From the IMG/VR virus record IMGVR_UViG_3300020450_001021, positions 20,641-84,640 of that record: 64,000 nt of DNA, one strand, 5' to 3'. The stretch is from a virus. Positions 4,223 to 64,000 of the stretch are shown piece after piece (within the stretch, counting starts at the first letter, position 1; each line of letters begins with the position of its first letter). A program made the position numbers and the translations under genes. The notes under the pieces are model-generated. The model worked only from the letters and a program-made list of their open reading frames with translations, made no database searches and was not told where the DNA came from.

Positions 4223-5619
4223 ACTTTTAAGTTTTTAAACTTTTGAAATTTAGATAGAATACTCGGTTTAACTTCATCAGAACTAACCTTTGTAATAACT
4301 GTTGTACTAATAGGTTGTTCTATGATGTCATCTTGAGCACTTTGTTCTACATCATACAGCTTCATTTTAGATCTGTCAACCCCTACAGCAAAACGTTTAT
4401 TCATAGTAGGATCGTTGTATCTATTCTTTAACTGTTTGACTAAAATTTGTCCTAGTTGTTCTGATTCCTCAGTAGAAATAAGAGCGAACATAAAATCAGC
4501 AGTTGCAGGAAGACCAAATGATTCAGAGGTATCGGTAAGATCAACATCACTACTACCGTAACCACTACGAGTAGTTTGAGTTGCACTAATAATCGGAACA
4601 TTCGTCTCGACAGCGAGACCTCGAAGTTCTTCAGCAATTGCTTTAACATAAGTATAGGAGTTAACAACAGCACCTTTAAATCTTTGTGATGCACAGATAT
4701 TTAGATAGTCAACGAATATAAGATCAGGTTTAAAACTTGTTTTTAATGTTAGTTCATTTAGTAATGCCTTAAAATGTCCTACATGTGCAGATGCAGTAGG
4801 GTATTCTTTAATGATTAACTTTCCTTGTGTTTTTTTCATTAACTTATTTACCTTACTCTCAAATATTTGCTTAGGTAAATCAGCAATCTCTTGTATATTA
4901 ACACCCAATAAGTTAGCATCTATTCTCTCTGCAATCTTTTCTTCAGACATTTCACAAGTAATATACAATACATTCTTACCTTGTAGTAATGTTGCTGCAG
5001 CAACGTGACACATGAATAAAGATTTACCAACACCTGTACCTGCAAGTGCTACATTCAATGTTTTATTTGATAATCCACCCTTAGTAATCTTATTGAACAT
5101 AGTAAGATCAAAAGGTATCTTCTCTTCTATTTTATTATAGAATTCAAATCTTTCTTTATAGTTAGAAAAGTAATCATGACCTATACGATTATCAAATGAA
5201 ACAGCAATAGCATCTGAAAGTATAGATGGTATAGCACCTTTATCTTTTTTAGGATCTTTACCATCTGCTATTTGTATACTCTCTAATAATGACAGATATA
5301 TTGCTCTATTTCTACACCATTCTTCTGTAGAATCTACTAACCATTTTTGATCTAGTTTTTCATTAGTAACTTTATCAATAGATTCAAGAGAAGATTTAAA
5401 CTGTTGATCAGTTAAACTACTACTGTTCTGTAAATCAATTGCTAATGATTCTTTAGTAGGACATTTCTCATACTTATCAATAAAATTTGATATCAATCCA
5501 AATAATAATTTATTAGGTTCTTCTTCAAAGTATTCTTTCTTTAGATATGGAAATGCCTGACGACGAAATTGATCATTCGTCACCAAGTTATTCAATATTG
5601 TAAATTCAAGTGAGTTCAT
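4219..5619 (-). CDS. 41: replicative DNA helicase gp41
   Basis: Walker A AGTGVGKS, IFVDYLNI, SATQTTRSG, QLKNRY motifs. Confidence 0.96.
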   Translation of the reverse strand: MNSLEFTILNNLVTNDQFRRQAFPYLKKEYFEEEPNKLLFGLISNFIDKYEKCPTKESLAIDLQNSSSLTDQQFKSSLESIDKVTNEKLDQKWLVDSTEEWCRNRAIYLSLLESIQIADGKDPKKDKGAIPSILSDAIAVSFDNRIGHDYFSNYKERFEFYNKIEEKIPFDLTMFNKITKGGLSNKTLNVALAGTGVGKSLFMCHVAAATLLQGKNVLYITCEMSEEKIAERIDANLLGVNIQEIADLPKQIFESKVNKLMKKTQGKLIIKEYPTASAHVGHFKALLNELTLKTSFKPDLIFVDYLNICASQRFKGAVVNSYTYVKAIAEELRGLAVETNVPIISATQTTRSGYGSSDVDLTDTSESFGLPATADFMFALISTEESEQLGQILVKQLKNRYNDPTMNKRFAVGVDRSKMKLYDVEQSAQDDIIEQPISTTVITKVSSDEVKPSILSKFQKFKNLKV

Positions 5620-9675: not shown

Positions 9676-9919
9676 CTTGTGGTGGGACTGTCAATTTATA
9701 TTTTTCCAGAAGATCTGGATCAGGATCTACAATTGTAGCAATAAAATCAGAATAAAGCAAGACGTTTCTTTGACCGCCATATTTTGGGAATGATTCTAGG
9801 TTTCCATTTACTATTTCCATTGGATCTGCAAGGAAACAAGACGGTTCCATTTCCATCTCTTGTATATAAGAGATGACATAAGCACCATTCTTAAGTAGTA
9901 GGAGTTTTACTGTTTCCAT
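9635..9919 (-). CDS. small Sm-like/beta-barrel hypothetical protein
   Basis: Likely start METVKLLLLKNG at 9919; same K-hydrophobic-K-x-G N-terminal pattern as its neighbours. Confidence 0.55.
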   Translation of the reverse strand: METVKLLLLKNGAYVISYIQEMEMEPSCFLADPMEIVNGNLESFPKYGGQRNVLLYSDFIATIVDPDPDLLEKYKLTVPPQDDEEEVPETSEFL

Positions 9920-10253
9920 CTGTCTCTTCAATGTTGTGTTTTGCCATGTAATCTGTTTTGATCTTATCAACAGGTTCGTATATTGTTACTACCCAATCAG
10001 ATGGTATAACAAATTCTTGCTGTTGAGACATTGGTGCCCAATGTGTATATGAAACTTGGAATTTTGTTTTAGGTGTGGGATCTTGACCCTCAACTAATAA
10101 TTCTGCTTCTTCAACTTCTTTTGTTTGAAGTTGCATTACATATGGATTCTTAAGATGATATGCAATAATGCCTTTATTATCTTTATCAATAATTTCTTGT
10201 GCATCACTGATGACATCTTCTCCAGATTTCATCAAAATAACTTTAACGGTCAT
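9891..10253 (-). CDS. Sm-like hypothetical protein (paralogue A)
   Basis: MTVKVILMKSGEDVISD...W.P...DWVVTIYEP. Confidence 0.65.
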   Translation of the reverse strand: MTVKVILMKSGEDVISDAQEIIDKDNKGIIAYHLKNPYVMQLQTKEVEEAELLVEGQDPTPKTKFQVSYTHWAPMSQQQEFVIPSDWVVTIYEPVDKIKTDYMAKHNIEETDGNSKTPTT

Positions 10254-10976: not shown

Positions 10977-11363
10977 TTAGTTATTTATCGTGTCCGTAAT
11001 GCTAAGGTTAGGTTCAGTAACCTCATCACCACCAAATACTGCCTTACCTTCTTCAGATGGTTTCATAGTTTGACCATATGCTTCCAGTACAGCAAGAATA
11101 GGTTCTACTATTGATACGACCCAATCTGGATTGACAGCAATCTCTTCATCTATAGTAAGAGGTTGCCATCGTTCAAGGAGAATCCTACCATTGTATATTT
11201 GATTTCTCTCAGGAACATCAGGTACTAGTTCTTTTTCGATCTTTACCTGATATGCATGAGTGAAGATGAATGCTTGTCTAGTTTTGGTTTCTTTTTCTTG
11301 AACCTCTTGGACATCAGCAATGATATCTTCACCTGATTTTAATTTAACAACTTTAATAGTCAT
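10977..11363 (-). CDS. Sm-like hypothetical protein (paralogue B)
   Basis: MTIKVVKLKSGEDIIAD...W.P...DWVVSIVEP; CTAAATA at 11385-11391. Confidence 0.65.
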   Translation of the reverse strand: MTIKVVKLKSGEDIIADVQEVQEKETKTRQAFIFTHAYQVKIEKELVPDVPERNQIYNGRILLERWQPLTIDEEIAVNPDWVVSIVEPILAVLEAYGQTMKPSEEGKAVFGGDEVTEPNLSITDTINN

Positions 11364-11954: not shown

Positions 11955-11962
11955 TATAAATA
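11955..11962 (+). promoter_or_regulatory. late promoter TATAAATA for the + strand genes
   Basis: Exact motif 21 nt before the ATG at 11984. Confidence 0.75.
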
Positions 11963-11983
11963 AAACAAGAAACATTTGTTAAC

Positions 11984-12481
11984 ATGATCAAAAAAGTATT
12001 GTTACTTGGTATGTTTTTGATGATATCTCCTGCATCAGCAGAGATAGTACATAAAATGAGTTCTAGTGTACAATTGACAGTAGATTCAGCCGCAAGTCAG
12101 GCTACTCGCTTAGGATCAAGTTATACCGTTAGTGGAAATAATTTGAAAGTAAGTGATGGTGGATCTTTTGGTGGACTAGGAACGTTAACCTCAGGTACAG
12201 CAGTTGGTTATACACCGTCAGCTATGGAAGTAAACACTGTAGGCTCAGCATTTAGCTACTCGGAAACCTATATTGAAGGGGACGATGTAACTTCATCTTC
12301 TACCGTATCAGGAGGAGTCGTTGCTGCATTACCATTACTTGGTAGTACAACTACAACATCTGGAGGAGTAGCAGGTACACTAGCTGGTACTATCACATCT
12401 GCTGGTGTGACTACGATTACAGGTGGAGGAGCTGGTACATCAGCTACTGGACAATTTGTGTCTGAATTGACAATAAAATGA
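11984..12481 (+). CDS. secreted Gly/Ser/Thr-rich beta protein
   Basis: Sec signal peptide MIKKVLLLGMFLMISPASA|E (A-x-A); mature part has no Cys and ends in a beta strand, FVSELTIK. Confidence 0.7.
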   Translation: MIKKVLLLGMFLMISPASAEIVHKMSSSVQLTVDSAASQATRLGSSYTVSGNNLKVSDGGSFGGLGTLTSGTAVGYTPSAMEVNTVGSAFSYSETYIEGDDVTSSSTVSGGVVAALPLLGSTTTTSGGVAGTLAGTITSAGVTTITGGGAGTSATGQFVSELTIK

Positions 12482-12532
12482 TAAATGACTTTCTTGACAA
12501 CTTGGCAGCACATCAATACCAAAAAATCAACC

Positions 12533-12982
12533 ATGAGCAAGATGAAACTTGCTATGGTTGTGGTTGCGAGTGCCCTTGTGAATGTCCCGACTGTGATGTC
12601 TGTTCCTGTTGTGCCTAATTTTACACAAGGCAGTATGAATAGTCACACAGAGACCACCAGTACTATAACTGAGACGATAAATAGCATGGATTATTCGACA
12701 GGTTTTACCTATTCGATTTCTGGGCACGGTATCCAAGTTAAAGAAGATGGTGCATTGACACCATCTGATACTACAAGTGCAACTAATACTATAAACGGTG
12801 TGAATTCACAATGGACAAATTTAGATTTGACAACAAAACCAGAAATACATTTATCTACACCTGGAGGAAGTTTTTCCGTAGTAGAAAGTTATTCTGGAGC
12901 TGGGTTGAGGAACCATACAGTAATACAAAGAACAACAACTATAACAAGCGTAACAGACACAACAAGTATATTTCAACAATAA
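12533..12982 (+). CDS. secreted Thr-rich beta protein
   Basis: Signal-like MSKMKLAMVVVASALVNVPTVMS then VPVVPNFTQGS; start could be 12485, 12533 or 12542. Confidence 0.7.
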   Translation: MSKMKLAMVVVASALVNVPTVMSVPVVPNFTQGSMNSHTETTSTITETINSMDYSTGFTYSISGHGIQVKEDGALTPSDTTSATNTINGVNSQWTNLDLTTKPEIHLSTPGGSFSVVESYSGAGLRNHTVIQRTTTITSVTDTTSIFQQ

Positions 12983-13812
12983 CAATATTAACAACAAGTT
13001 TGTGTGCTAATTCCATACCATTACGTGCAGAGACGGTGGGAGGAGTTAGTGCAACAGCATCGCCAATAGCAAACAGTTCTGGAAGTGTCACAAACCAAGC
13101 TATACAGGTGCTTCAAGGACCGTATATAACTAATACTTATGGTGGTGGTATACAATGCCAAGGACCTACCATGAATGTAACACCGTTTGTAACAGGAGGA
13201 GTAACATTCAAAAAACCATTTGAACGATACTATGATGATCCCGTTTATAATGTGCATGATGCTGATGATGACGGGCAGATTGACAATCCTGGTGAAATTT
13301 TATATTTTGTACCTACTAGAACTGGACAGACAGATAACTATAATTTATCGTTAGGTGTATCTGCTACATGGTCTAAACCATTAGATCCAGAACTACAAGA
13401 ACTATGTAAAAATGCTGCAAATATACAAATGGCAGCAGTTCAACAGAACACCGCCAATAAACGCCTTGACTTTGAAATAGCCAGATTAAAAAATTGTGGA
13501 GAATTGATGAAAGCTGGTATAATTTTTAAACCAAATACTAAGTACGCCAAGGTATGTGAGGATGTTATGCTTACAAATCCTCCAGGTGTAGTAGCAGAGC
13601 ACACACACGTATTATCTAACGTGGTTTCAAAGGAGGAAGACCTTTCTTCTTCCGATACTCATTCATACGAACAAGATCACGAGAAGGACGTTGAGGGGTC
13701 TTCCCGACGCTGGTTTGAATTTTGGAAATCATCTTCTTCACAGCAGGTTTTACTACCCTCAAAATCAAATCAGCAAGGGGCTTCGCTAATAAAGCCGATG
13801 TCGCTGCCGTAG
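12811..13812 (+). CDS. exported protein with beta-hairpin, DxDxDG loop and Cys-containing helical region; start uncertain
   Basis: Signal-like NKYISTITILTTSLCANSIPLRA|E, DADDDGQID loop, YNLSLGVSATWSKPLD strand, four Cys in the mature part; last ~65 codons overlap the convergent gene. Confidence 0.65.
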   Translation: MDKFRFDNKTRNTFIYTWRKFFRSRKLFWSWVEEPYSNTKNNNYNKRNRHNKYISTITILTTSLCANSIPLRAETVGGVSATASPIANSSGSVTNQAIQVLQGPYITNTYGGGIQCQGPTMNVTPFVTGGVTFKKPFERYYDDPVYNVHDADDDGQIDNPGEILYFVPTRTGQTDNYNLSLGVSATWSKPLDPELQELCKNAANIQMAAVQQNTANKRLDFEIARLKNCGELMKAGIIFKPNTKYAKVCEDVMLTNPPGVVAEHTHVLSNVVSKEEDLSSSDTHSYEQDHEKDVEGSSRRWFEFWKSSSSQQVLLPSKSNQQGASLIKPMSLP

Positions 13813-14371
13813 CAGCTATTACTGCTGTAGTTGATGCTACCTGAGTGCTTGGTAGATACTGTTCAACTGGTGGTATGTCAGTATATAATGTCACACAAAT
13901 TTTTGCTCCACCAGGATTTTGAGGATTAATTCTTAACTCATGTCCTGATACTTTTTCTTTTTGGTTTGTTGCTATATCTCCTACTCTTAATGCATTAGGT
14001 CCTGGACATGGTGGATCTCCCTCTACCTTAGGTGTCTCAGGAACTTTTGTTTCTGGTACTGATGGTGGTGCTACCACTGGTAATTGTTGACTCTGTGTTA
14101 TTAACAGTTGCTCAGGTTCATAGTTCATAGCATTAAAACTAGGAACACCTGCATCACAAAATGTTCTAACAGTGCTTGAGTCGTCTTTAATTATCTTATT
14201 ATTTCTATCACTAAACTCATGTGCTTCTACACAACCAGGTACATTTACAATAGGTGTACCAATCTCTACAGTAACTGGTTGATATGGTACAAAAGCATGA
14301 GGAGTAGGGAACGTGTATACATTGACATCACGAACCCTAATATTGTTTATTCCTATCCCACTAATAGGCAC
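13616..14371 (-). CDS. Pro-rich protein with four Cys and a C-terminal hydrophobic anchor
   Basis: GTG start overlapping the previous stop; VASTTAVIAATAATSALLA followed by a basic tail. Confidence 0.65.
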   Translation of the reverse strand: MPISGIGINNIRVRDVNVYTFPTPHAFVPYQPVTVEIGTPIVNVPGCVEAHEFSDRNNKIIKDDSSTVRTFCDAGVPSFNAMNYEPEQLLITQSQQLPVVAPPSVPETKVPETPKVEGDPPCPGPNALRVGDIATNQKEKVSGHELRINPQNPGGAKICVTLYTDIPPVEQYLPSTQVASTTAVIAATAATSALLAKPLADLILRVVKPAVKKMISKIQTSVGKTPQRPSRDLVRMNEYRKKKGLPPLKPR

Positions 14372-14580
14372 TAGAAAGAAGGAATTTCAAGACCCTTATC
14401 AGGTTCTATTGATGGTGATGGTAGTGATGGCATCACTCCACTTCCAATAGAACCCAGTGCTTTCTCTTTAATAGATTCTATGATTGCATCCTTACGTACA
14501 TAAACGTAACCAGCAGTGCCAACAACGGTAAGAGATACAACAGCAGACGTAATAGCGAGTACATTAATTAATTTTTGCAT
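14371..14580 (-). CDS. small single-TM protein with Pro-rich tail
   Basis: MQKLINVLAITSAVVSLTVVGTAGYVYV-RK; probable start 14580. Confidence 0.65.
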   Translation of the reverse strand: MQKLINVLAITSAVVSLTVVGTAGYVYVRKDAIIESIKEKALGSIGSGVMPSLPSPSIEPDKGLEIPSF

Positions 14581-14584
14581 GATT

Positions 14585-14980
14585 TTACTTTGAATCAGGG
14601 ACAATTTTGACAGGACCTTGTTCGATCCTTATGGTTTGTGCAGGTGCAGTTTCAGATGCTTTAGCAATAAGAAACTCCATATCTTTTTTAGATATGTTAG
14701 CACTACTGTCTGCACCATTCTTTTTCTTACCTCCAGCGGACACACCAAAGGTAGCTAAAGTTCCTGTAAAAACTGAAGCTATGAAAGTTGGATCAATTCT
14801 CTCTCCTCTCTCGTAACCTGGTATTTTAACGTAGTTCAAAGTTAAAATTCCTGCGGACCACACAAGGACTATCACTCTTATGAGTGTTGCTAGGTATTGA
14901 AGTTGCTCTTCTTTATCGTCAACTTTCTCTTTAATTTTACTAAAGAGACCTTTACTTTCCTCCTTCTTTATTTCTGCCAT
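14585..14980 (-). CDS. two-TM membrane protein
   Basis: Hydrophobic segments YLATLIRVIVLVWSAGILTLNYV and IDPTFIASVFTGTLATFGV; charged termini. Confidence 0.7.
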   Translation of the reverse strand: MAEIKKEESKGLFSKIKEKVDDKEEQLQYLATLIRVIVLVWSAGILTLNYVKIPGYERGERIDPTFIASVFTGTLATFGVSAGGKKKNGADSSANISKKDMEFLIAKASETAPAQTIRIEQGPVKIVPDSK

Positions 14981-14999
14981 GGTACATTAATATCTGTAT

Positions 15000-15007
15000 T
15001 ATTTATA
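15000..15007 (-). promoter_or_regulatory. late promoter TATAAATA
   Basis: Exact motif overlapping the regA stop, 20 nt upstream of the ATG at 14980. Confidence 0.75.
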
Positions 15008-55637: not shown

Positions 55638-56408
55638 TTAATAACCATAATTACTTTCACCTTCGTCAAGACCGTAACGTCTCTTAAACACTTCCCAATT
55701 GTGTTTAATTTCATCTACAGATAAAACTTTTTCATAAATTCTAGCAATAGTGATGAAAGGACCATTAGTAGAAGTACCTTGCATAACACCAGCATATCCA
55801 GTACCTACTCGTACTCTACCTGCTTGTCTGTAAGAATTAGTTCCACCATTGGCTCTTACTACATAAGTTCCTACATTCTTACCATTAAATCTATTTTGTC
55901 CCTGACCTGGATTAGGACCAGGTAATGTTGATGTCCATTGAGTCCATGCAGAATCTTGCCAAGCTGTTTGTGTATTTGAATAATCATAACTACCACCTGT
56001 AGCACCACCTCTGTAGTGACTTAGGTTTTCACCTGTTTCGTAAGTACAAGCAAACTCATTTTGATAACTTGTACCACCTTGGTATGAAACTTTTTCAAAA
56101 ATAGTGTCTCGCTCATTAACAGCATCACCAGATCTCCAAACTATTAGTTCAAGAGTTGCTCCACCTCCAGTCCAGAATTTCTTACCATCAGCTTCAGATG
56201 ATTGCCAGTATCCACTATTATTAAATTGAAAACATGGAACACCATTTTTTGTAGTAAAGGGTGTTTGAGTTCCATTATTATCCATTACAATTTTATTAGC
56301 AAGATCAAACCATTTTGATCCACTGCCTGGATAAGATTTAGGATTACCTGCATCTAAGTAAAAACAAAGACCGTCAGATATACAATTTTGTCCTGTATGT
56401 AATGCCAT
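55638..56408 (-). CDS. LamG/concanavalin-A-like virion protein
   Basis: DGL..YLDAGN..SYPGSG..W.DL N-terminus and RIY...LS..EI..N....RYG C-terminus. Confidence 0.8.
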   Translation of the reverse strand: MALHTGQNCISDGLCFYLDAGNPKSYPGSGSKWFDLANKIVMDNNGTQTPFTTKNGVPCFQFNNSGYWQSSEADGKKFWTGGGATLELIVWRSGDAVNERDTIFEKVSYQGGTSYQNEFACTYETGENLSHYRGGATGGSYDYSNTQTAWQDSAWTQWTSTLPGPNPGQGQNRFNGKNVGTYVVRANGGTNSYRQAGRVRVGTGYAGVMQGTSTNGPFITIARIYEKVLSVDEIKHNWEVFKRRYGLDEGESNYGY

Positions 56409-59400
56409 TAGTTTCCTTTGTCGTACTCCACCTCTAGTTTATCTATATCTTTTCTTTCCGCTTGTATAAAGTAGAAAGCATCACCACCACCTGTAATAAC
56501 TTTATTATCACGTAAATCCTTAACCCAAACTGTTCTTGACATTCCACCAATTGCAGTTAATTGAACTGTGATTGTACTCATATCAACTAATTCAGTCCAG
56601 TAATCTGGAAGTTTAATAACTCCATTTCTTACACGTCCTCTTACATATACTGCATGTTCAGGACCTTCAAGTGAACCATGACGTAGTTCATGATTCTCTT
56701 TTGTTGGGTGATCAATAACAAATGATTTACTTACTGCACCTAAGGATCCATTTACATAGAATTGGTAACTAGTATTTGTACTACTTTGGTTAACAGCAAC
56801 ACGTCTAGAATCATCTAGAACCAGTGTACTTACATTACTACCTGCTTTGAAATGCCACTTACGTCCAGTTTCAACTCTATCAACAATATCACCAGGTGAT
56901 GTACCATTACCATAATGACCTGCAGAGTTAACATATGCTAATCTGTAACCTATGACAGTGGATCCGTGAAGATGTTGAATAGCGGAATGACCACCTGTTT
57001 CACCTCTAATACGAAGAGCTGTACTACTATTTGCTCTTAATAAGAATTCACTTTCTTTATCATTAAATACTTGGAATACTGCAGTTCCAAAGTTTTGAGT
57101 GTAAACACCAAATATCTGTGCTTCAGCAGTACCATTTGTAGTAGAGAATCTTGCGTTCCAACTAGAACCACTACCTCTAAACTGTATACCACCAGCGAAA
57201 GTAATAAACTTATTACTTTGTGTGAATGATATTTGATTATCATTTGTGGTATTAATGGTTAACGTACCAGTTAAAGTTCCACCAGTAATCGGTAAGTTTC
57301 CGTTAGCAGTACCATTCAATGCTGCTGTAATAGTACCAGCAGAGAAGTTACCAGATGCATCACGAATAACACCAGTGTTTACTACATTTGAACTATTAAA
57401 TGTTATGTTACCTGCATGCCATATATTGTTACCATTTACCTGTGCACTATTTGCTCGTAAGTTAATAGTACCTGTACCTATGCTACTAGATCCACCAGTA
57501 AATTCAATTCTAGAATCAAAATCTACATTGTTACTTGATGTATTAGCATCAATATATGCAGTAGCAGCAACATCAGTGTTACCTAATTGTAAGTAAGGAT
57601 TACTACTACCATCAACTCCAAGAGTTGCCTTAGTTCTAGAATAAGTTGTCTCTTTTGAAATACTCCAATCAGTTAAATCATAGTATTCTGCAGGTGCAGT
57701 AGCAGTACCAACTTTCTTAATAGAATCTGATAAGTTACCAGATATTAGTTCAACTGTAAGAATTGTCCAAGGATTTTCAACCTTTCTTTCAAATGTTAAT
57801 AGAGCATTTCCACCAGGTGCTGTTACAGTACCAGTGTTATGTGTTGGAGGAGTTGTTCCTAAACTATAAGAACCAGTTATAGTGTTTGTTACGTTGTATA
57901 TGTTATGACCATATACGATTCTTTCGTTTCTATTTGCTGTTGCGTTTGCAACCCACTCAGTATTATTTTCAACATACTGAACTCCAGTTAGATAATTAGC
58001 AGGATCAAGATTAATTCTTCTACTAATAATTCTTATAGTACCTTCGTTAACATTGTTAGCGGTATATAGATTATATTGTCTACCACCTACACCTGGTTGA
58101 GTGTCAATTTGATCTATAACTTCTTGAGTTAGGTTATATCCCTCAAAATAGAGATCATAATGACCACCATTATTTGCTTGGAAATTAGGATCAGGAACGG
58201 TTACTGTAATCTTCTCATTAAATGCCTTTTCTCCTAATTGCTCAGGTATTCTTCTATCAGATAATGCTCCTTCATTAACGTTGAGAGCGTTACCCCACCA
58301 ACGACCACCATAGTTACATAATAGATCAGCGTTTAATCCAGATCCTTTTCCATGGTTTCCATCATGCCACACCTTACGCCATGTTGACCATACATTACCA
58401 GTAGAAGAACCACTTCCAAGTATTGCAAGAGTTGCTGTAATAACTGCAGGCGTTGTTATCTGTCTTGTATTTTGTGTGCCAAAATGTTCATAAGGTAAAT
58501 CTGCAATAAATGTACCTGATGCATTACCATCTTCGTTATAACCATAACCACCGTCTATTAAAGTAATAGAAGATAAAGATCCACCAGAAACAACTATATT
58601 TGCTTTTAAACCATAACCTTCACCACCACTTAGTAGTATGTTATTATATGTTCCATTTACATAACCAGCACCTGCATTGGTAATACTTAATGATGCAACA
58701 AAGTTAGGACCACTATTTCTAATGTAAATGTTATTATTATCTGTCTGTGCTATCTGCCCTAAAGCACCTCCTGAGAAGTCCGTAGAAGACCCTGAGCGAC
58801 GTGTTGTAAGCACACTATGATATAAACCACCATCACTAAGGAATTGGTTTGCATTATAACCTTGACTATTACTCTTCCATGAAAGAATTAAACCTTCAGC
58901 AAAGTTTTCTGGGTTAAAGATAGAAGTTCTTGTATCAGAAGAATTTAACAAGGTAGCTGTGGCAGCGTTACCTGTAATATTAATACTATAATCTCCACTC
59001 AATCTATCTGATGATAAAAGACCAGATTGAATGTTATCTGCATTAGTGAAGAAACTAGAATCTCTAGTGTCAAGTGTGTCAGCATCAAGACCAGAACCTT
59101 GACCAGTTCTTAATGTTGTAGCACCATTAGCACCAAATGTAAATTGATCCTTACGTAATCTAATAACACCTAAGTTACCAAAATCATTAGCAGCAACTGT
59201 AAGATCATCAACTCTATTAATATCAATTACAGAATCACCAAAGATCTTAGGTACAGTTGCAAGAATACCTTTTAAACTAGCAGATACAGTTGGAGAAGTT
59301 CCAATTGAAGTTGGTATAGGAGTTATATTGAAATCTGCAGTATAATTATTACCACCATCAGTAATAGTAACAAATCTAACAGCACCATCTTTAGTAACTG

Positions 59401-62400
59401 ATGTTGCTGTAGCGTCTACACCACCTCCACCTACAAATTCAACTAAAGGAGTATTTGTTCCTAATCCTGTACCACCATCAATCATATGAACAGCAGTAAC
59501 TGCCCCACCATTTACTATTGCAACTGCCTTAATATTATTAAGGAATTGTGGATTTTGTGGATCTGTCCAGTTATCTTTAAATGTAACTGTAGGAGGTGTT
59601 GTATATCCAGTACCACCTGCAGTAACATTAACTTTACTTACAGTACCATTTGCAATATTAAATGATCCTTTAAGACCTGATGCTGATGCACCACCACCTA
59701 ACATTAAAACATCAGTGTATGTTCCTGTATTATATCCTTCACCACCATCAACAATTTGAATTTGTTTGATGTAATCACTTGCAGTGTTGTTTGAACCTAA
59801 TTGAATTGGTGAATCTTCTGCAATTCTTTGTGATGCCATTGCAGGAGCAAATAATGAGTCACCTCTTAAATAAGTTAGTGAGTTTGCAGGATATGCAGAC
59901 GATACATTACCGAGACGTGCAACGTTAATAACACCTGTTGTAATAAATGAAGCATCAATTGTAGATGATGTTAACTGAACCCAGTTATTAGGATTAGAAG
60001 CAGAAGTGTTAATAACATCTGTTAACTGAATTGTTATTGCAGTTGGAGTTGTTTTATCATCAATAGTGTCAGTAGCAAGTGCCTTTATTGAGTTTAATAT
60101 ATCAACTTCTAATCTAGATCTGACAACTGAAGTAAGAACAGCATTAGAACCTGTTGAGGTATTAATTGTAATTGTGCTACCAGCAGTTGATGGTGCAGTG
60201 AAATATCCTGATCCATTATTGTTTAGAGTTACACCAGTAATCTGCCCACCATTAACAGTAATAGTACCAGTCGCTTGTGTACCACCACCGCCAGGTGCTG
60301 AAATTGTAATTGTATCTCCAGTTAAATATCCTGTACCACCATTGTTAACAATAATTTGTTTTACACGACCAGTAGTAAATGATGTTACTTGACCTTGTGA
60401 TCCAGTACCTGTAGAAAGTACAATATCACTAGTAGAAAATACGTGGTTTGATGCAGGAACAAATTCAAGAATCTGACTTTCTAAGTCATTGTTCATAATG
60501 TAAGAAATTGTATTGTCATTCTGAATAACAATATCACCAGCAAGAGGACCTTCAAGTGCATATCTTGCTGCAGCATCTGCAACCGTAAAGATATTAAATG
60601 GTCTTAATGCAGGTAACTGGTCAATATTAATACGACCAGAAGCATCTAACTGAACAAGAGCATTAGGTGTTGGAACAGTAGAATATGTACGTCCTAAGTA
60701 TTGACCTAACTGGTTAGAGATATAATCTTTAACTGCTTTCTGTGTTGGTAGTAATGAATCTTGAGCACCTGATCCACCTAATTCTAGAGCACCTAAAGTA
60801 TTATCTGGAGAGAATCCTGTGATAACAACGTTGTTACCTTTAATCTTCAAGAATTCAACTTCAGAAATTGTAACAGTACCACCAAATGTGATATTACCAG
60901 TTCTGTTTTCTACCTTAGCAAAGTATCCAATCTTAAAGTCACCAAGTTCGTCAGTACCTGAGGAGTAAACACGACCATTTAGTTGTGATACCTGTTCAAA
61001 ATCTCCAGTATCATCTGAACCTCTAGTACCACCATTTTGAGGTAGTGCATTATAATTATTACCAGATCCAGAAAATTCCCATGTATGAGATGAGGAGTTA
61101 CAAATAGATGGTCTAATTATATCAATTTTATGATCAATTAATTTATTTTTATTTGTTGCATTAATAGTAAAGAATCCATCATCCCTAACTGTCGTTGAAG
61201 GCATAGGAGATGTTACAGATGGATTATCAATTATCTCATCAAATAAAGTATTTAAAGTTGTTAATGCATTTTGAACATTAGTACAATCACCATTAGTATA
61301 TTCAGTTCCAGTACTGACATCATGTGTAATGGTATTGTCTACATATGGAATTTCATCTGTCCATTGTGCTACGTAATAATTAGCATTTGATTCAGCAGTA
61401 GTTAGTGTAGTTCCTTTTAGTTTAAGTTGATTATTTACTGCTTTCTTTGATATTACTAACGCTTCGTCAAGAACTTCTTTAGTTGCTGCAACATATCCAA
61501 CAATATGTTGAATAGAAGTTCCACTTACATATAATTTAGCAGCATCCCAAGTAGAATCATTAGAATCATATTTAAGGTCTTGTGCCCATGCTTTAACTAT
61601 TTCCTCTGTATCACGAATACATTTATTTCTATCTTGATCTAAAGGATTAGATGTAGTTTGTAATGTTTTGAAGTATGCTTCTTCTGCAATATACCTAGCA
61701 TTATTTGTAAGTAAATCACATGCATCTGTATAGCGGTTGAAGTTACCCCTAACATTCATAGGTAGGTCTGCTTGTATTTCAGCAGTAATTGGTTTAGTAG
61801 GTGTTGCTGATATAGTATTCTCAATAAAGTATCTGGGGTTTTGACCAGATTGTAATTGTAATTCAAATCCACCAGGACTAATAATATAATGTTCTAGAGG
61901 TGCAGCACCAAGACCTGTAACATTAAACTTAGGAGTTCCTATATCAGTAAATGTTACATTTTCAATAATACCTTTATCAAAGTCATATGCCTCATCTCTT
62001 ACACCTGTTGATCTTAATGCAAAAGTACCAAAGTTAGATGCTGAGTTAGTTAATGATGCATAACCACCACTTTCTACAATAGCACCATCTTGTGTAAAGA
62101 TACAGAATACAGACACCAACTGTGTATAACCATCATTGATAACTCTATATCCAGTACCACCAAATGAGATAATCGTGAATGCAGCAGCAACCATCGACTT
62201 ACCTTGTGGAGGTAAATTAGGACGTTTTACGTTTGGTGAAGCACACTTAGCACCATCAATTTCACAACCATTACCACCAAGGAATGAAATTACAGAAGCA
62301 TTAAAGATATAAGGTGATACTTCAATAATAGGTAGATCATCAAATGCATGACCTACAGTAAAGAATTTATTATTACTATCAAGGAAATATGATGATGCAT

Positions 62401-64000
62401 AAGATGTGTCAGGAATTGTTCTTCCATTAATCCTATCAATAACAATATTCCATAAAGTAAATATTGAGTTACTTACATTATCACATGCTCTACTTCTATT
62501 AGCATCATATGTATTTGAAATTGTATTATCATTGAATACATCTATAGTTGTGCTAAATTGTGATAGACCATTTGGATCTGTAAATTCACTACCTGTTCCA
62601 GTAATTATATAACTATTATTACCTCCAAATAGACCAACTGTATCACTAAATGCAATACCTTCTAATCTATCATTAGAACCATAACCAAATTCAACATTCC
62701 ATGTCCTTCCTTTATCTTGAGATGATAATATTGTGTTGTTTGCAGTTCCACTACCTGATTGGAATCTCAAATCCATCCAGAATCTATTTCCATCATGAAC
62801 TAATCTAAATGGTATCCTATTTTGGTTTGCAGAACCTGGTGTGCTCTCGCCATATTCCCATTGTGCATGACCAGCTGACTCTGTTAGAGTAGCGTGACTC
62901 ATATTATCATTCGTTATTGCTGTAGTAACAATAGTGTTTAAGGTTACTATTGAGTTAATAACATCAGTACATGCTGTGGTTGGACTTTCAGGACCATTCT
63001 TAATAATACCGTTTACATCACCTGATAAGAATGTATGAACATAATTACCACCTGCTATCAATGAATCAGCTTGTGCACTAACAAAAGTATGAGCATAAGA
63101 ACTCGTGCTTATACCAACAAATAGTTTGACTTGTGTAGTGTTGGTATCAACTACAGGAATACTTGTATCAAATGCTCTGTCTCTCTTCTTACTTACTCCA
63201 CCACCAGGCGAAGATACGAATGTATGAATATAACTACCACCTGATAGAACTTGTGCTCTGTTAACAGAGTTATTTGTTGCACCAACAAATGTATGAGTGT
63301 ATCCACCACCACTTATTACAGCACCTGATGTTGCACTATCAAATCTATGCTCAGATGTGTCAGATGAAGTACCAACATTAATTGTGATAGAAGTTTTTGT
63401 TGTATCTGTAATAGTAACTGGAACATCATATGCAGCGTCAGGAGTACCTGCATTTGCTCCTGTTCCACTTGCACGAGGATATGACTTAGCAGTATTAAAG
63501 TTATCTAAACCACACTTAAATGATATTGAATTAGCAGCTAACTTAATATTTGTACCAACTTTAAGATCATGCTTACCAATCTCTAGTGTCATTACACCAG
63601 TAGATGGTGTATATTCACCAGCAGTAGGAGTGAATGTTACAAGTGGAGAAGTACCAACATCAAGATCAAATGTAAATGTAGTTACGTTCTCTAGTTGTAC
63701 ATACTTACCAGCAATCGGATCACTAGAACGTGGATACTGCTTAGTTGCAGTATTGTTGTCCATTGTACAAGTGAATGATAATGCATTTTCATCAAGTTTT
63801 ACATAATCATCAGTTGTTAATTGGTGTGCACTAGCAAATGTTAAAGTTAATTTACCAGTAGCAGGATCATATGCAGCATCGCTAGGAGTTAAACCAGTAG
63901 CAGCTTGGAATGTATGAGGATAATCACCACCTGATATAACAGCAGCAGTAGAAGTTCCACCTGACCATGTATGAACATAATTACCACCTGTTACAACAGC
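56408..64000 (-). CDS. giant tail fibre/structural protein (5'-truncated by the window, >2500 aa) with C-terminal chaperone-like domain
   Basis: Frame stays open from 63763 to 64000 (checked by hand); GGxYxHTF and GxGY..P.V repeats, GSGLDAD.LD fibre motif twice, terminal KSF.IDHP..L.HGSLEGPE...LPDYW domain. Confidence 0.85.
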   Translation of the reverse strand, partial: AVVTGGNYVHTWSGGTSTAAVISGGDYPHTFQAATGLTPSDAAYDPATGKLTLTFASAHQLTTDDYVKLDENALSFTCTMDNNTATKQYPRSSDPIAGKYVQLENVTTFTFDLDVGTSPLVTFTPTAGEYTPSTGVMTLEIGKHDLKVGTNIKLAANSISFKCGLDNFNTAKSYPRASGTGANAGTPDAAYDVPVTITDTTKTSITINVGTSSDTSEHRFDSATSGAVISGGGYTHTFVGATNNSVNRAQVLSGGSYIHTFVSSPGGGVSKKRDRAFDTSIPVVDTNTTQVKLFVGISTSSYAHTFVSAQADSLIAGGNYVHTFLSGDVNGIIKNGPESPTTACTDVINSIVTLNTIVTTAITNDNMSHATLTESAGHAQWEYGESTPGSANQNRIPFRLVHDGNRFWMDLRFQSGSGTANNTILSSQDKGRTWNVEFGYGSNDRLEGIAFSDTVGLFGGNNSYIITGTGSEFTDPNGLSQFSTTIDVFNDNTISNTYDANRSRACDNVSNSIFTLWNIVIDRINGRTIPDTSYASSYFLDSNNKFFTVGHAFDDLPIIEVSPYIFNASVISFLGGNGCEIDGAKCASPNVKRPNLPPQGKSMVAAAFTIISFGGTGYRVINDGYTQLVSVFCIFTQDGAIVESGGYASLTNSASNFGTFALRSTGVRDEAYDFDKGIIENVTFTDIGTPKFNVTGLGAAPLEHYIISPGGFELQLQSGQNPRYFIENTISATPTKPITAEIQADLPMNVRGNFNRYTDACDLLTNNARYIAEEAYFKTLQTTSNPLDQDRNKCIRDTEEIVKAWAQDLKYDSNDSTWDAAKLYVSGTSIQHIVGYVAATKEVLDEALVISKKAVNNQLKLKGTTLTTAESNANYYVAQWTDEIPYVDNTITHDVSTGTEYTNGDCTNVQNALTTLNTLFDEIIDNPSVTSPMPSTTVRDDGFFTINATNKNKLIDHKIDIIRPSICNSSSHTWEFSGSGNNYNALPQNGGTRGSDDTGDFEQVSQLNGRVYSSGTDELGDFKIGYFAKVENRTGNITFGGTVTISEVEFLKIKGNNVVITGFSPDNTLGALELGGSGAQDSLLPTQKAVKDYISNQLGQYLGRTYSTVPTPNALVQLDASGRINIDQLPALRPFNIFTVADAAARYALEGPLAGDIVIQNDNTISYIMNNDLESQILEFVPASNHVFSTSDIVLSTGTGSQGQVTSFTTGRVKQIIVNNGGTGYLTGDTITISAPGGGGTQATGTITVNGGQITGVTLNNNGSGYFTAPSTAGSTITINTSTGSNAVLTSVVRSRLEVDILNSIKALATDTIDDKTTPTAITIQLTDVINTSASNPNNWVQLTSSTIDASFITTGVINVARLGNVSSAYPANSLTYLRGDSLFAPAMASQRIAEDSPIQLGSNNTASDYIKQIQIVDGGEGYNTGTYTDVLMLGGGASASGLKGSFNIANGTVSKVNVTAGGTGYTTPPTVTFKDNWTDPQNPQFLNNIKAVAIVNGGAVTAVHMIDGGTGLGTNTPLVEFVGGGGVDATATSVTKDGAVRFVTITDGGNNYTADFNITPIPTSIGTSPTVSASLKGILATVPKIFGDSVIDINRVDDLTVAANDFGNLGVIRLRKDQFTFGANGATTLRTGQGSGLDADTLDTRDSSFFTNADNIQSGLLSSDRLSGDYSINITGNAATATLLNSSDTRTSIFNPENFAEGLILSWKSNSQGYNANQFLSDGGLYHSVLTTRRSGSSTDFSGGALGQIAQTDNNNIYIRNSGPNFVASLSITNAGAGYVNGTYNNILLSGGEGYGLKANIVVSGGSLSSITLIDGGYGYNEDGNASGTFIADLPYEHFGTQNTRQITTPAVITATLAILGSGSSTGNVWSTWRKVWHDGNHGKGSGLNADLLCNYGGRWWGNALNVNEGALSDRRIPEQLGEKAFNEKITVTVPDPNFQANNGGHYDLYFEGYNLTQEVIDQIDTQPGVGGRQYNLYTANNVNEGTIRIISRRINLDPANYLTGVQYVENNTEWVANATANRNERIVYGHNIYNVTNTITGSYSLGTTPPTHNTGTVTAPGGNALLTFERKVENPWTILTVELISGNLSDSIKKVGTATAPAEYYDLTDWSISKETTYSRTKATLGVDGSSNPYLQLGNTDVAATAYIDANTSSNNVDFDSRIEFTGGSSSIGTGTINLRANSAQVNGNNIWHAGNITFNSSNVVNTGVIRDASGNFSAGTITAALNGTANGNLPITGGTLTGTLTINTTNDNQISFTQSNKFITFAGGIQFRGSGSSWNARFSTTNGTAEAQIFGVYTQNFGTAVFQVFNDKESEFLLRANSSTALRIRGETGGHSAIQHLHGSTVIGYRLAYVNSAGHYGNGTSPGDIVDRVETGRKWHFKAGSNVSTLVLDDSRRVAVNQSSTNTSYQFYVNGSLGAVSKSFVIDHPTKENHELRHGSLEGPEHAVYVRGRVRNGVIKLPDYWTELVDMSTITVQLTAIGGMSRTVWVKDLRDNKVITGGGDAFYFIQAERKDIDKLEVEYDKGN

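Follow-up and report, generated by a model that had tools for sequence, protein, structure and literature searches.

The stretch of DNA examined here, a window of 64,000 nucleotides (nt) from the IMG/VR virus record IMGVR_UViG_3300020450_001021, carries a module of six genes, designated O1 to O6, whose products are predicted to be exported or membrane-anchored. Judged from its sequence, the module is most likely late-expressed, cyanophage-specific and envelope-targeted, and we propose, giving the proposal about an even chance of being correct, that it represents a non-canonical late lysis or envelope-disruption system which replaces the canonical holin-endolysin-spanin set. Lysis is preferred because a compact form of the module occupies the T7 lysis slot in cyanopodoviruses, because the promoters of the module are of the late type and because the module is absent from lysozyme-carrying cyanomyoviruses; the holin features of O6, the ring model obtained for O3 and the overlapping O2 and O3 genes, an arrangement also seen in spanin pairs, suggest the same function. 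The record that contains the window (84.6 kb; CheckV completeness approximately 45%) is of the T4-like cyanomyovirus type, and its nearest named relative is P-HM1, with approximately 82% nucleotide identity over part of the region. The features of the module, in window coordinates, are as follows.

11955-11962, + strand: late-promoter-like TATAAATA, exact match, 22 nt before the O1 ATG
11984-12481, + strand: O1, 165 amino acids (aa); T4-GC 237; phrog_564; predicted exported, Cys-free, rich in Gly, Ser, Thr and Ala
12485/12533-12982, + strand: O2, likely start 12533; DUF6322; T4-GC 236; phrog_650
12811-12982, + strand: O2/O3 dual-coding stretch, with the O3 ATG and basic leader in the -1 frame of O2
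12811-13812, + strand: O3; T4-GC 235; phrog_848/1755; Syn9 gp165; predicted exported, four invariant Cys
O3 subregions: leader and signal peptide to approximately 13029; conserved mature domain 13030 to approximately 13620; variable tail to 13809
13616-13812, both strands: convergent O3/O4 overlap, the O3 tail (+) against the O4 anchor and basic tail (-)
13616-14371, - strand: O4, 251 aa, Pro-rich; T4-GC 234; phrog_570; Syn9 gp164; predicted N-out/C-in
14371-14580/14604, - strand: O5, likely ATG at 14580 (69 aa); T4-GC 414; phrog_568, labelled 'plasmid stability'
14585-14980, - strand: O6, DUF6450, 131 aa; T4-GC 218; phrog_2714; Syn9 gp161
15000-15007, - strand: late-promoter-like TATAAATA, exact match, 20 nt before the O6 ATG and overlapping the regA stop codon

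An earlier, sequence-only reading of the window had described three + strand open reading frames (ORFs) converging on three - strand ORFs, had regarded the former as the only credible + strand genes of the window and had placed the block between regA and hsp20. This description is accurate: O1 to O3 converge on O4 to O6, they are the sole + strand ORFs of at least 90 aa in 64 kb that are not nested within a longer - strand ORF, and the flanking genes match the expected families (regA, PF01818, 3.8e-44; hsp20, PF00011, 4e-16). Two corrections to the layout are nevertheless required, as O3 begins at an ATG located 172 nt within O2, and its 3' tail overlaps the 3' end of O4 by 197 nt. Long-tailed O3 variants at other loci overlap O4 by 200-270 nt, and most O3 genes end near the O4 stop codon. 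The long O3 tails share a motif near their end, which may merely mirror the conserved O4 anchor encoded on the opposite strand.

The compact form of the module is found in T7-like cyanopodoviruses. Phages P-SSP3 and S-RIP2 encode a relative of O3 (28-32% identity) between the tail fibre and small terminase genes, and the podovirus genes follow one another on one strand in the order O4-like, DUF6450 (O6-like), O2-like and O3-like. The Pro-rich O4-like protein is homologous to O4 (hhalign 92%, E 6.4e-7 over the anchor), the O6 counterpart matches DUF6450 (7.2e-33, 112.7 bits) and the O2-like protein matches phrog_650 (6.3e-35). This order is the same across 80 further IMG/VR loci; the O4-like and O2-like genes were both found in 61 of them, and in all 61 a small ORF with the D-x-T-F-[IVL]-A-S motif (DUF6450) lies between the two. 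O1 and O5 were not found in the podoviruses. On the T7 map, the slot between the tail fibre and terminase genes holds the holin gp17.5, and the spanin genes 18.5 and 18.7 lie just after gene 18. Phage P-SSP7 lacks T7 genes 3.5, 17.5 and 18.5, and ORFs in those positions may replace them, according to an excerpt of Sullivan 2005 (PMC1079782). The ORFs inserted between podovirus O3 and the small terminase gene, when read by eye without a family search, included none resembling a lysin and appeared similar to HNH nuclease, 2-oxoglutarate-oxygenase-like proteins and small basic proteins. An additional ORF of 52-54 aa (phrog_2738) directly follows O3 in podoviruses (L191, 6457-6621; L190, 5347-5505; P-SSP3 L082, approximately 4470-4627), and the P-SSP3 record shows it fused with the frame of O3.

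The distribution of classical endolysins among the phages concerned is consistent with a function in lysis. Six endolysin families were searched for in the complete module-bearing genomes of P-SSP3, S-RIP2, Syn9 and P-HM1: Phage_lysozyme, Amidase_2, M23, M15_4 and Amidase_3 were each found in none of the four, and the only match to SLT was a sub-threshold one in Syn9. Among eight complete Kyanoviridae genomes, O2 (PF19847), O3, O4 and O6 (PF20048) are all present in three and all absent from five, as listed here.

Syn9: O2, O3, O4 and O6 present; no lysozyme-type lysin
P-HM1: O2, O3, O4 and O6 present; no lysozyme-type lysin
DSL-LC03 (freshwater): O2, O3, O4 and O6 present; lysozyme-type lysin, its gene starting 1.8 kb from the module
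S-PM2: O2, O3, O4 and O6 absent; lysozyme-type lysin
ACG-2014f: O2, O3, O4 and O6 absent; lysozyme-type lysin
S-CREM1: O2, O3, O4 and O6 absent; lysozyme-type lysin
S-SRM01: O2, O3, O4 and O6 absent; lysozyme-type lysin
S-CAM7: O2, O4 and O6 absent, O3 represented only by a 19.5-bit O3-like fragment with a stop; lysozyme-type lysin

Such a pattern is to be expected if the module and the classical lysin cassette are alternative solutions to one task. In S-PM2 the ORF matching Phage_lysozyme (1.1e-22) is annotated 'putative lysin' and adjoins small ORFs and a 'lipoprotein precursor', all of which belong to T4-GC 846 to 858; a lysin of this type occurs in 65 'Synechococcus phage' records. The sequence-only reading had recognised no canonical holin, endolysin or spanin in the window; for this phage, the endolysin check covered three families on the record at its 84.6-kb extent (approximately 45% complete). 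An excerpt of PMC2984593 describes cyanomyoviruses as lacking the T4 r genes. The O3-like fragment of S-CAM7 (NC_031927, 31575-31790), which contains an in-frame stop, may be a remnant of a lost module.

As the sequence-only reading had claimed, each half of the module is preceded by its own late promoter candidate, with an exact TATAAATA at both ends. The octamer by itself is no commoner than expected in this AT-rich window (10 copies against 11.8), and it is the position of its core that is conserved: among distinct upstream regions, TAAATA occurs 12-45 nt before O1 in 49 of 58 and before O6 in 26 of 37, compared with 2/66 for O2, 1/64 for O3, 0/67 for O4, 5/46 for O5 and a background of 1.7% of random windows. 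The late motif reported for cyanomyoviruses is NATAAATA (PMC2984593, in excerpt). Since O6, O5 and O4 adjoin one another or overlap by 1-4 nt, a single transcript for the three is probable, and this arrangement, together with the conserved TAAATA before O1 and O6, makes it likely that the module is transcribed as two late operons, O1-O2-O3 and O6-O5-O4.

Targeting of the products was judged by hydropathy and by cleavage-site statistics computed in this study, and on these measures the claim of six envelope-targeted products holds for all six, as a prediction from sequence. O1 and O2 are devoid of Cys and consist to 55% and 42%, respectively, of Gly, Ser, Thr and Ala. Their N-termini are hydrophobic and are followed by A-x-A before the conserved mature end, with Ala at position -1 in 33 of 39 O1 sequences and 53 of 61 O2 sequences. 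The two proteins are probably distant paralogues, as indicated by hhalign (probability 80.6%, E 1.3e-5, 56 columns), and O2 is a member of DUF6322 (PF19847; 127.4 bits against a gathering cut-off of 30.6, E 3.4e-37) and of phrog_650 (5.6e-52). Neither protein contains repeats or matches solved pilins or amyloid subunits in sequence, and sequence and profile searches of O1 to O4 against solved structures returned chance-level rows only (E 0.25-1.6). Likewise, no muralytic or other named domain was found in any of the six proteins (Pfam and NCBIfam, E up to 1), nor did profile searches of solved chains yield a muralytic match for O1 to O4.

The hydrophobic segments of O4, O5 and O6 fit the suggestion of the earlier reading that inner-membrane anchors are present, and all three look like such anchors. 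O4 possesses four Cys, of which the first pair is invariant, and 12.4% Pro; a small Cys domain lies at its N-terminus, and towards the C-terminus a hydrophobic segment is followed by a basic tail. The net charge of the part N-terminal to this single segment is -6 to -14 and that of the C-terminal tail is +12 to +16, from which an N-out/C-in orientation is predicted by the positive-inside rule; a protein atlas search returned nothing usable for O4. O5 is a short N-anchored peptide (69-77 aa) that mostly ends in Pro-Phe; it belongs to no Pfam family and its sole NCBIfam row is at chance level, far below the cut-off. The 'plasmid stability' label attached to O5 stems from phrog_568 and GenBank product names, and a role as a plasmid stability or partition protein found no support, as no partition, toxin-antitoxin, resolvase or recombinase domain was detected in Pfam or NCBIfam. 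O6 is a member of DUF6450 (PF20048; 113.3 bits against a gathering cut-off of 25) with one strong (Kyte-Doolittle, KD, 2.21) and one moderate (KD 1.53) hydrophobic segment and charged ends. It looks holin-like, being small and having a membrane helix, a charged C-terminus and a late-type promoter, features which are generic rather than specific.

O3 is highly conserved in sequence: 27 of its columns, including the four Cys, are invariant between myo- and podoviruses, and mature residues 1-30 form its most conserved part. An AlphaFold2 monomer model based on a deep alignment (66 rows) reached a predicted local distance difference test (pLDDT) value of 75.7, with residues 1-23 disordered, and bears out the beta-hairpin and the Cys-bearing helix that the sequence-only reading had attributed to this protein: the hairpin strands span residues 52-72 and 89-110, and a 42-residue helix extends over residues 119-160. 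An earlier model, built on a shallow alignment, was of low quality (pLDDT 57.5), so that its fold search carries little weight. The base of the hairpin (approximately 46-59 and 102-114) alternates between hydrophobic and polar residues and is consequently amphipathic. The distal part of the hairpin and its acidic tip are deleted in podoviruses; the tip is conserved in myoviruses. This tip (mature residues approximately 73-88; nt approximately 13250-13295) forms an acidic D-x-D-x-D-G-x-x-D-N-P-G loop, which we take to resemble calcium-binding loops.

When four copies of O3 were modelled together, a score of 0.54 was obtained in all three runs, compared with 0.00 for the best of three controls. 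The 0.54 mark is reached by 20 of 30 proteins solved as one-chain pairs and by 1 of 23 solved as single chains, a calibration that used two copies, while the O3 run employed a custom alignment and four. The runs agree in at least 80% of contacts, with a partner pLDDT of at least 62. Adjacent copies pair through strand 45-53 of one and strand 108-117 of the next, the helices pack side by side and one copy touches two neighbours; the geometry of the model is that of a ring or barrel. In the models O3 behaves like a subunit of an oligomeric outer-membrane channel, a component that the earlier reading had envisaged for the apparatus. The weak Foldseek rows for O3 include the FlgH ring (8z5n_1, probability 0.77, E 0.11), toxin pore stems, MspA and TraT (E 1.5). 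VIA-align matched the O3 helix only (Z approximately 5), and the combination of hairpin, helix and Cys loops matched no solved chain as a whole. A search of BFVD with O3 returned only uncharacterised cyanophage relatives, and the protein atlas only the viral clusters of the family itself. The possibility that O3 is a LAS-type metallopeptidase was considered and rejected: D177, H190 and H192 are invariant in myoviruses, but the His pair is absent from podoviruses.

The start of O3 inside O2 is a recurrent property of the module. O3 occupies the -1 frame of O2 at every locus examined for this, 72 from myoviruses and 67 from podoviruses, and in all 72 myovirus loci the O3 ATG is composed of the last base of the preceding codon and the TG of an invariant O2 Trp codon, the preceding codon being ACA (32), TCA (31) or CAA (9) and thus always ending in A. 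Measured at the 3' end of O2, the median open length of the -1 frame is 193 nt for myoviruses (n=73) and 354 nt for podoviruses (n=66), compared with 35 nt for the +1 frame and 57-66 nt in synonymous-codon shuffles, and at 85% of myovirus and 62% of podovirus loci no more than 5% of shuffles are open for as long. Chance alone would leave the -1 frame open for far less. In the overlapping stretch it is the O2 frame that is conserved (mean pairwise identity 70%) and not the O3 leader (39%), yet the leader stays basic despite this low identity (net charge +8.3) and is followed by a hydrophobic core, an A-x-A site and the conserved mature end. At one locus (L036) O3 is detached from O2 and has an ordinary short signal peptide of its own, and many distant members of the O3 family also have ordinary signal peptides; mature O3 would therefore be an exported protein, with the long leader a by-product or regulator of the overlap. 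A -1 ribosomal frameshift fusing O2 and O3 is less likely than separate initiation, in view of the ATG in 72 of 72 loci despite the varying O2 codon, the L036 arrangement and the ordinary signal peptides. Near the O3 signal peptide, some podovirus loci lack any ATG, GTG or TTG, and for these a far-upstream start or a frameshift is possible. The O2/O3 pair is a clear-cut case of extended dual coding retained in two unrelated phage families.

These observations can be assembled into a more detailed, tentative proposal, which we regard as possible though doubtful, namely that a new kind of lysis machine, which dispenses with a classical endolysin, is common to marine T4-like and T7-like cyanophages and consists of an O3 ring, O2 (with O1 in myoviruses), an O4 tether and a DUF6450 trigger. 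Two late transcripts, O1-O2-O3 and O6-O5-O4, would supply the components, and translation of O3 from the ATG inside O2 (-1 frame) would couple its synthesis to that of O2. O1, O2 and O3 would be exported by Sec, their A-x-A signal peptides being evident in the sequence and presumably cleaved. O3, stabilised by two disulfides, would then assemble side by side into a ring in which the hairpin bases form an outer-membrane barrel and the 42-residue helices a periplasmic collar, while O4 (N-out/C-in, with its Pro-rich spacer) and O5 (N-in, with its C-terminal Pro-Phe) would tether the assembly to the inner membrane and O6, acting like a holin, would set the timing.

Among known systems, two-component spanins (lambda Rz/Rz1, P2 LysB/LysC, T7 gp18.5/18.7) resemble O2 and O3 in that the genes of two exported proteins overlap in different reading frames. 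Spanin gene pairs overlap, as do O2 and O3; moreover, the podovirus pair adjoins the terminase genes in the T7 lysis region, and Cys pairs, a long helix and a predicted action in the periplasm and at the outer membrane are further points of likeness. The pair differs from spanins in that O3 lies in the -1 rather than the +1 frame, is modelled as a beta-hairpin ring rather than a short Pro-rich lipoprotein, and shares no sequence or fold similarity with them. Small holins and pinholins (T7 gp17.5, phage 21 S21) are comparable to O6 (98-157 aa) in having one or two membrane helices and charged ends, a small-xxx-small pattern in the conserved second helix, predicted late transcription and a position beside the podovirus tail fibre gene, whereas O6 belongs to no Pfam or NCBIfam holin family and matches DUF6450 only. 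The O3 model, finally, has in common with ring-forming outer-membrane proteins (FlgH, CsgG, secretins such as pIV, and MspA) and the stems of beta-pore-forming toxins a long amphipathic hairpin paired edge to edge, the lateral strand pairing being present in the four-copy model (0.54 against 0.00); unlike them, O3 has no lipid anchor, and it has no significant fold match.

Several observations weigh against a lysis function. The module contains no recognisable muralytic domain, so that a breach of the cell wall is not explained by the module alone. O2 does not conform to an i-spanin, since it has a cleavable signal peptide (A-x-A) and no uncleaved N-terminal anchor, and O3 does not conform to an o-spanin, since the Cys in the signal region of the window O3 is absent from most homologues and no lipobox is conserved. 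The O3 model matches no solved fold, all Foldseek rows having E values of at least 0.1 and TM (template modelling) scores below 0.2; the outer-membrane location of O3 is deduced from amphipathicity only, and the passage of its acidic hairpin tip through a bilayer would be costly. DSL-LC03 carries both the module and a lysozyme, so that the two are not strictly exclusive, and the complementarity is drawn from 10 search-picked, interrelated genomes with no phylogenetic correction.

The constancy of the module was assessed with 80 IMG/VR loci retrieved through O3, out of at least 591 confirmed hits, gene presence being scored as a tblastn hit. O1 was found at 68 of these loci, O2 at 78, O4 at 76, O5 at 52, O6 at 44 and all six genes at 32, and O2, O3 and O4 adjoin one another at nearly every locus; many loci are truncated, and those without an O1, O2 or O4 hit are loci that end too near O3. 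O3 identity across the 80 loci is 66-98%, the median distance between O4 and O3 is 86 nt, and O6 is often 1-3 kb from the rest of the module. In seven loci (L006, L014, L016, L018, L021, L028 and L062) the orientation of O4 is reversed, so that it comes directly after O3 on the O3 strand; an inverted O4 would be co-transcribed with O1-O3, which argues that O4 functionally belongs with O3. The flanks differ among phages, with hsp20 at 4 and regA at 2 of the 80 loci and hli genes instead in P-HM1. In P-HM1, PHM1_198 to PHM1_192 match O1-O6 at 41-87% identity in the same order and are annotated T4-GC 237, 236, 235, 234, 414 ('plasmid stability') and 218, and Syn9 has the same layout (regA gp160, gp161-gp167, hsp20 gp168). 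Co-occurrence and gene order over the 80 loci, Syn9 and P-HM1, together with the all-or-none pattern in the eight Kyanoviridae genomes, thus sustain the claim that the six genes form a conserved unit.

Relatives of O3 occur in 438 phage records, all named cyanophages or marine viruses, and in the representative library the family falls into 564 clusters (50% identity). When 185,579 prokaryote species were scanned, 27 loci with homologues were obtained, of which 25 are on contigs from metagenome-assembled genomes (MAGs) or single cells and the other two are a phage-size isolate contig of 188 kb and a contig of 423 nt; the two whose ORFs were listed (L190 and L191) display the gene order of T7-like cyanopodoviruses. 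The O3 family is accordingly taken to be phage-only, as far as these searches indicate. Module-bearing cyanophage contigs (L165-L191) are filed in MAGs labelled Formosa, Euryarchaeota, Bacteroidetes, Chloroflexota, Saccharibacteria and others, and the 188-kb module-bearing contig is in an isolate assembly of Nonlabens; such misfiled contigs are likely to be binning or contamination artefacts or to derive from infected single cells.

Judging by their orthologues, the six genes correspond to what Sullivan et al. 2010 described in T4-like cyanophages as a 'hypothetical cluster'. An excerpt of that paper reports the cluster in 15 of 16 cyanomyoviruses, with S-PM2 as the phage that lacks it, and proposes that it is mobile; in the main text it is called hypothetical and is not listed among the virion proteins (PMC3037559). 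Its absence from S-PM2 is confirmed here for O2, O3, O4 and O6. Relative to the excerpted description, the present analysis adds the prediction that the products are exported or membrane proteins, together with the counterpart in podoviruses, the overlap between O2 and O3, the model of O3 and the lysozyme pattern. A literature search retrieved no paper that mentions DUF6322 or DUF6450 and nothing on the function of the cluster, nor any relevant literature on a cyanophage holin, spanin or lysis cassette, on signal peptides, on P-SSP7 gp45-48 or on Syn9 gp165. In excerpts of PMC9860041 a lysozyme gene is named only in the colour key of a figure legend.

The sequence-only reading had assigned the proteins to the envelope rather than the virion, had treated them as a unit and had offered three uses for it: a surface filament or cell aggregation, superinfection exclusion, or non-canonical lysis. 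Envelope targeting and the conserved unit have stood, and among the three uses lysis fits best; filament formation or aggregation has found no support, as O1 and O2 have no sequence match to solved proteins and the podoviruses lack O1. A related account, in which a small secretion or assembly system uses an O3 channel to release or polymerise O1 and O2 on the surface, in the manner of curli (CsgG with CsgA/B) or the filamentous-phage secretin, would make sense of the single promoter of O1-O2-O3, of the Cys-free paralogues with signal peptides, of the modelled self-association of O3 and of mature residues 1-30 of O3, which are the most conserved yet disordered in the monomer, as if they bound a partner. 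Nevertheless, neither O1 nor O2 has the repeats or the similarity to pilins or amyloid subunits that such subunits might display, the podoviruses have O2 only, a use for a filament late in the lytic cycle is not obvious and the lysozyme pattern is left unexplained. We therefore consider this account improbable, and much the same low chance, at most marginally better, is given to superinfection exclusion or receptor masking, a kind of system exemplified by TraT, T5 Llp and Cor, in which an exported O3 ring (with O1 and O2) would block adsorption, DNA entry or the sticking of progeny to debris. Envelope-targeted proteins encoded only by phages, the 27 loci of the prokaryote scan being phage-like contigs, would suit exclusion, as would the weak Foldseek row to decameric TraT (E 1.5) and the autotransporter-like outer-membrane gene of some loci. 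Exclusion genes are usually early, and the late-type promoters and the late-gene position in podoviruses fit poorly; exclusion also fails to explain the absence of the module from lysozyme-carrying cyanomyoviruses and the holin-like O6, and the TraT row is not significant.

Two further accounts appear far less credible. The variable flanks, the inverted O4 at seven loci and the frequent displacement of O6 would be in keeping with a selfish mobile cassette that has no role in infection and is moved by its 'plasmid stability' gene; yet no partition, toxin or recombinase domain was detected in O5, a membrane-anchored peptide, the strong conservation of O3 (66-98% identity, 27 invariant columns) and a family of 564 clusters argue for a selected function, and mobility and function are in any case compatible, so that we hold this account to be very improbable. 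Ordinary virion or assembly components would likewise be expected to have late promoters and, as in the podoviruses, to be encoded among structural and packaging genes, but three of the proteins have predicted cleavable signal peptides and three have membrane anchors, Syn9 gp161-gp167 lack the 'structural virion protein' note that gp23 carries, and the cluster is missing from the virion proteins in the main text of Sullivan 2010 (PMC3037559, in excerpt); this is, in our opinion, the least probable of the accounts considered. The remainder of the probability is reserved for a reading not yet conceived.

Prochlorococcus and Synechococcus are the most abundant marine phototrophs, and their lysis by both phage groups drives the release of carbon and nutrients. 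Excerpts of two papers on these phages (PMC1079782, PMC2984593) name no lysis genes for them, and the module is the best current candidate for the machinery that breaks open ocean cyanobacteria. If the proposal of a shared lysis machine is true, it names the genes behind a large share of the viral killing of Prochlorococcus and Synechococcus, and a defined module would supply marker genes for late infection in metatranscriptomes.

Synechococcus-type myoviruses have additional genes between O5 and O6, examples being L019 4181-4774, L039 4075-4533, L069 3147-4670 and, in DSL-LC03, L084 6162-7811. These include a staphylococcal-nuclease homologue (PF00565) at 54 loci, a phrog_605 membrane protein at 25 loci, which is probably T4-GC 219, and genes whose products were judged by eye from their translations to be plastocyanin-like. 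A protein of approximately 510-550 aa, present in two phages, is annotated in DSL-LC03 as an autotransporter outer-membrane beta-barrel protein. Searches of the record containing the window for the nuclease, the phrog_605 protein and the autotransporter-like protein found none of them. Beside hsp20, the window encodes two paralogous DUF6561 ORFs on the - strand (9891-10253 and 10977-11363), one of which is also weakly Sm-like, with a nucleotidyltransferase-like ORF between them. Further along, a very large ORF occupies 56408-63763 on the - strand (2451 aa from the first ATG), and its frame is still open at the end of the window.

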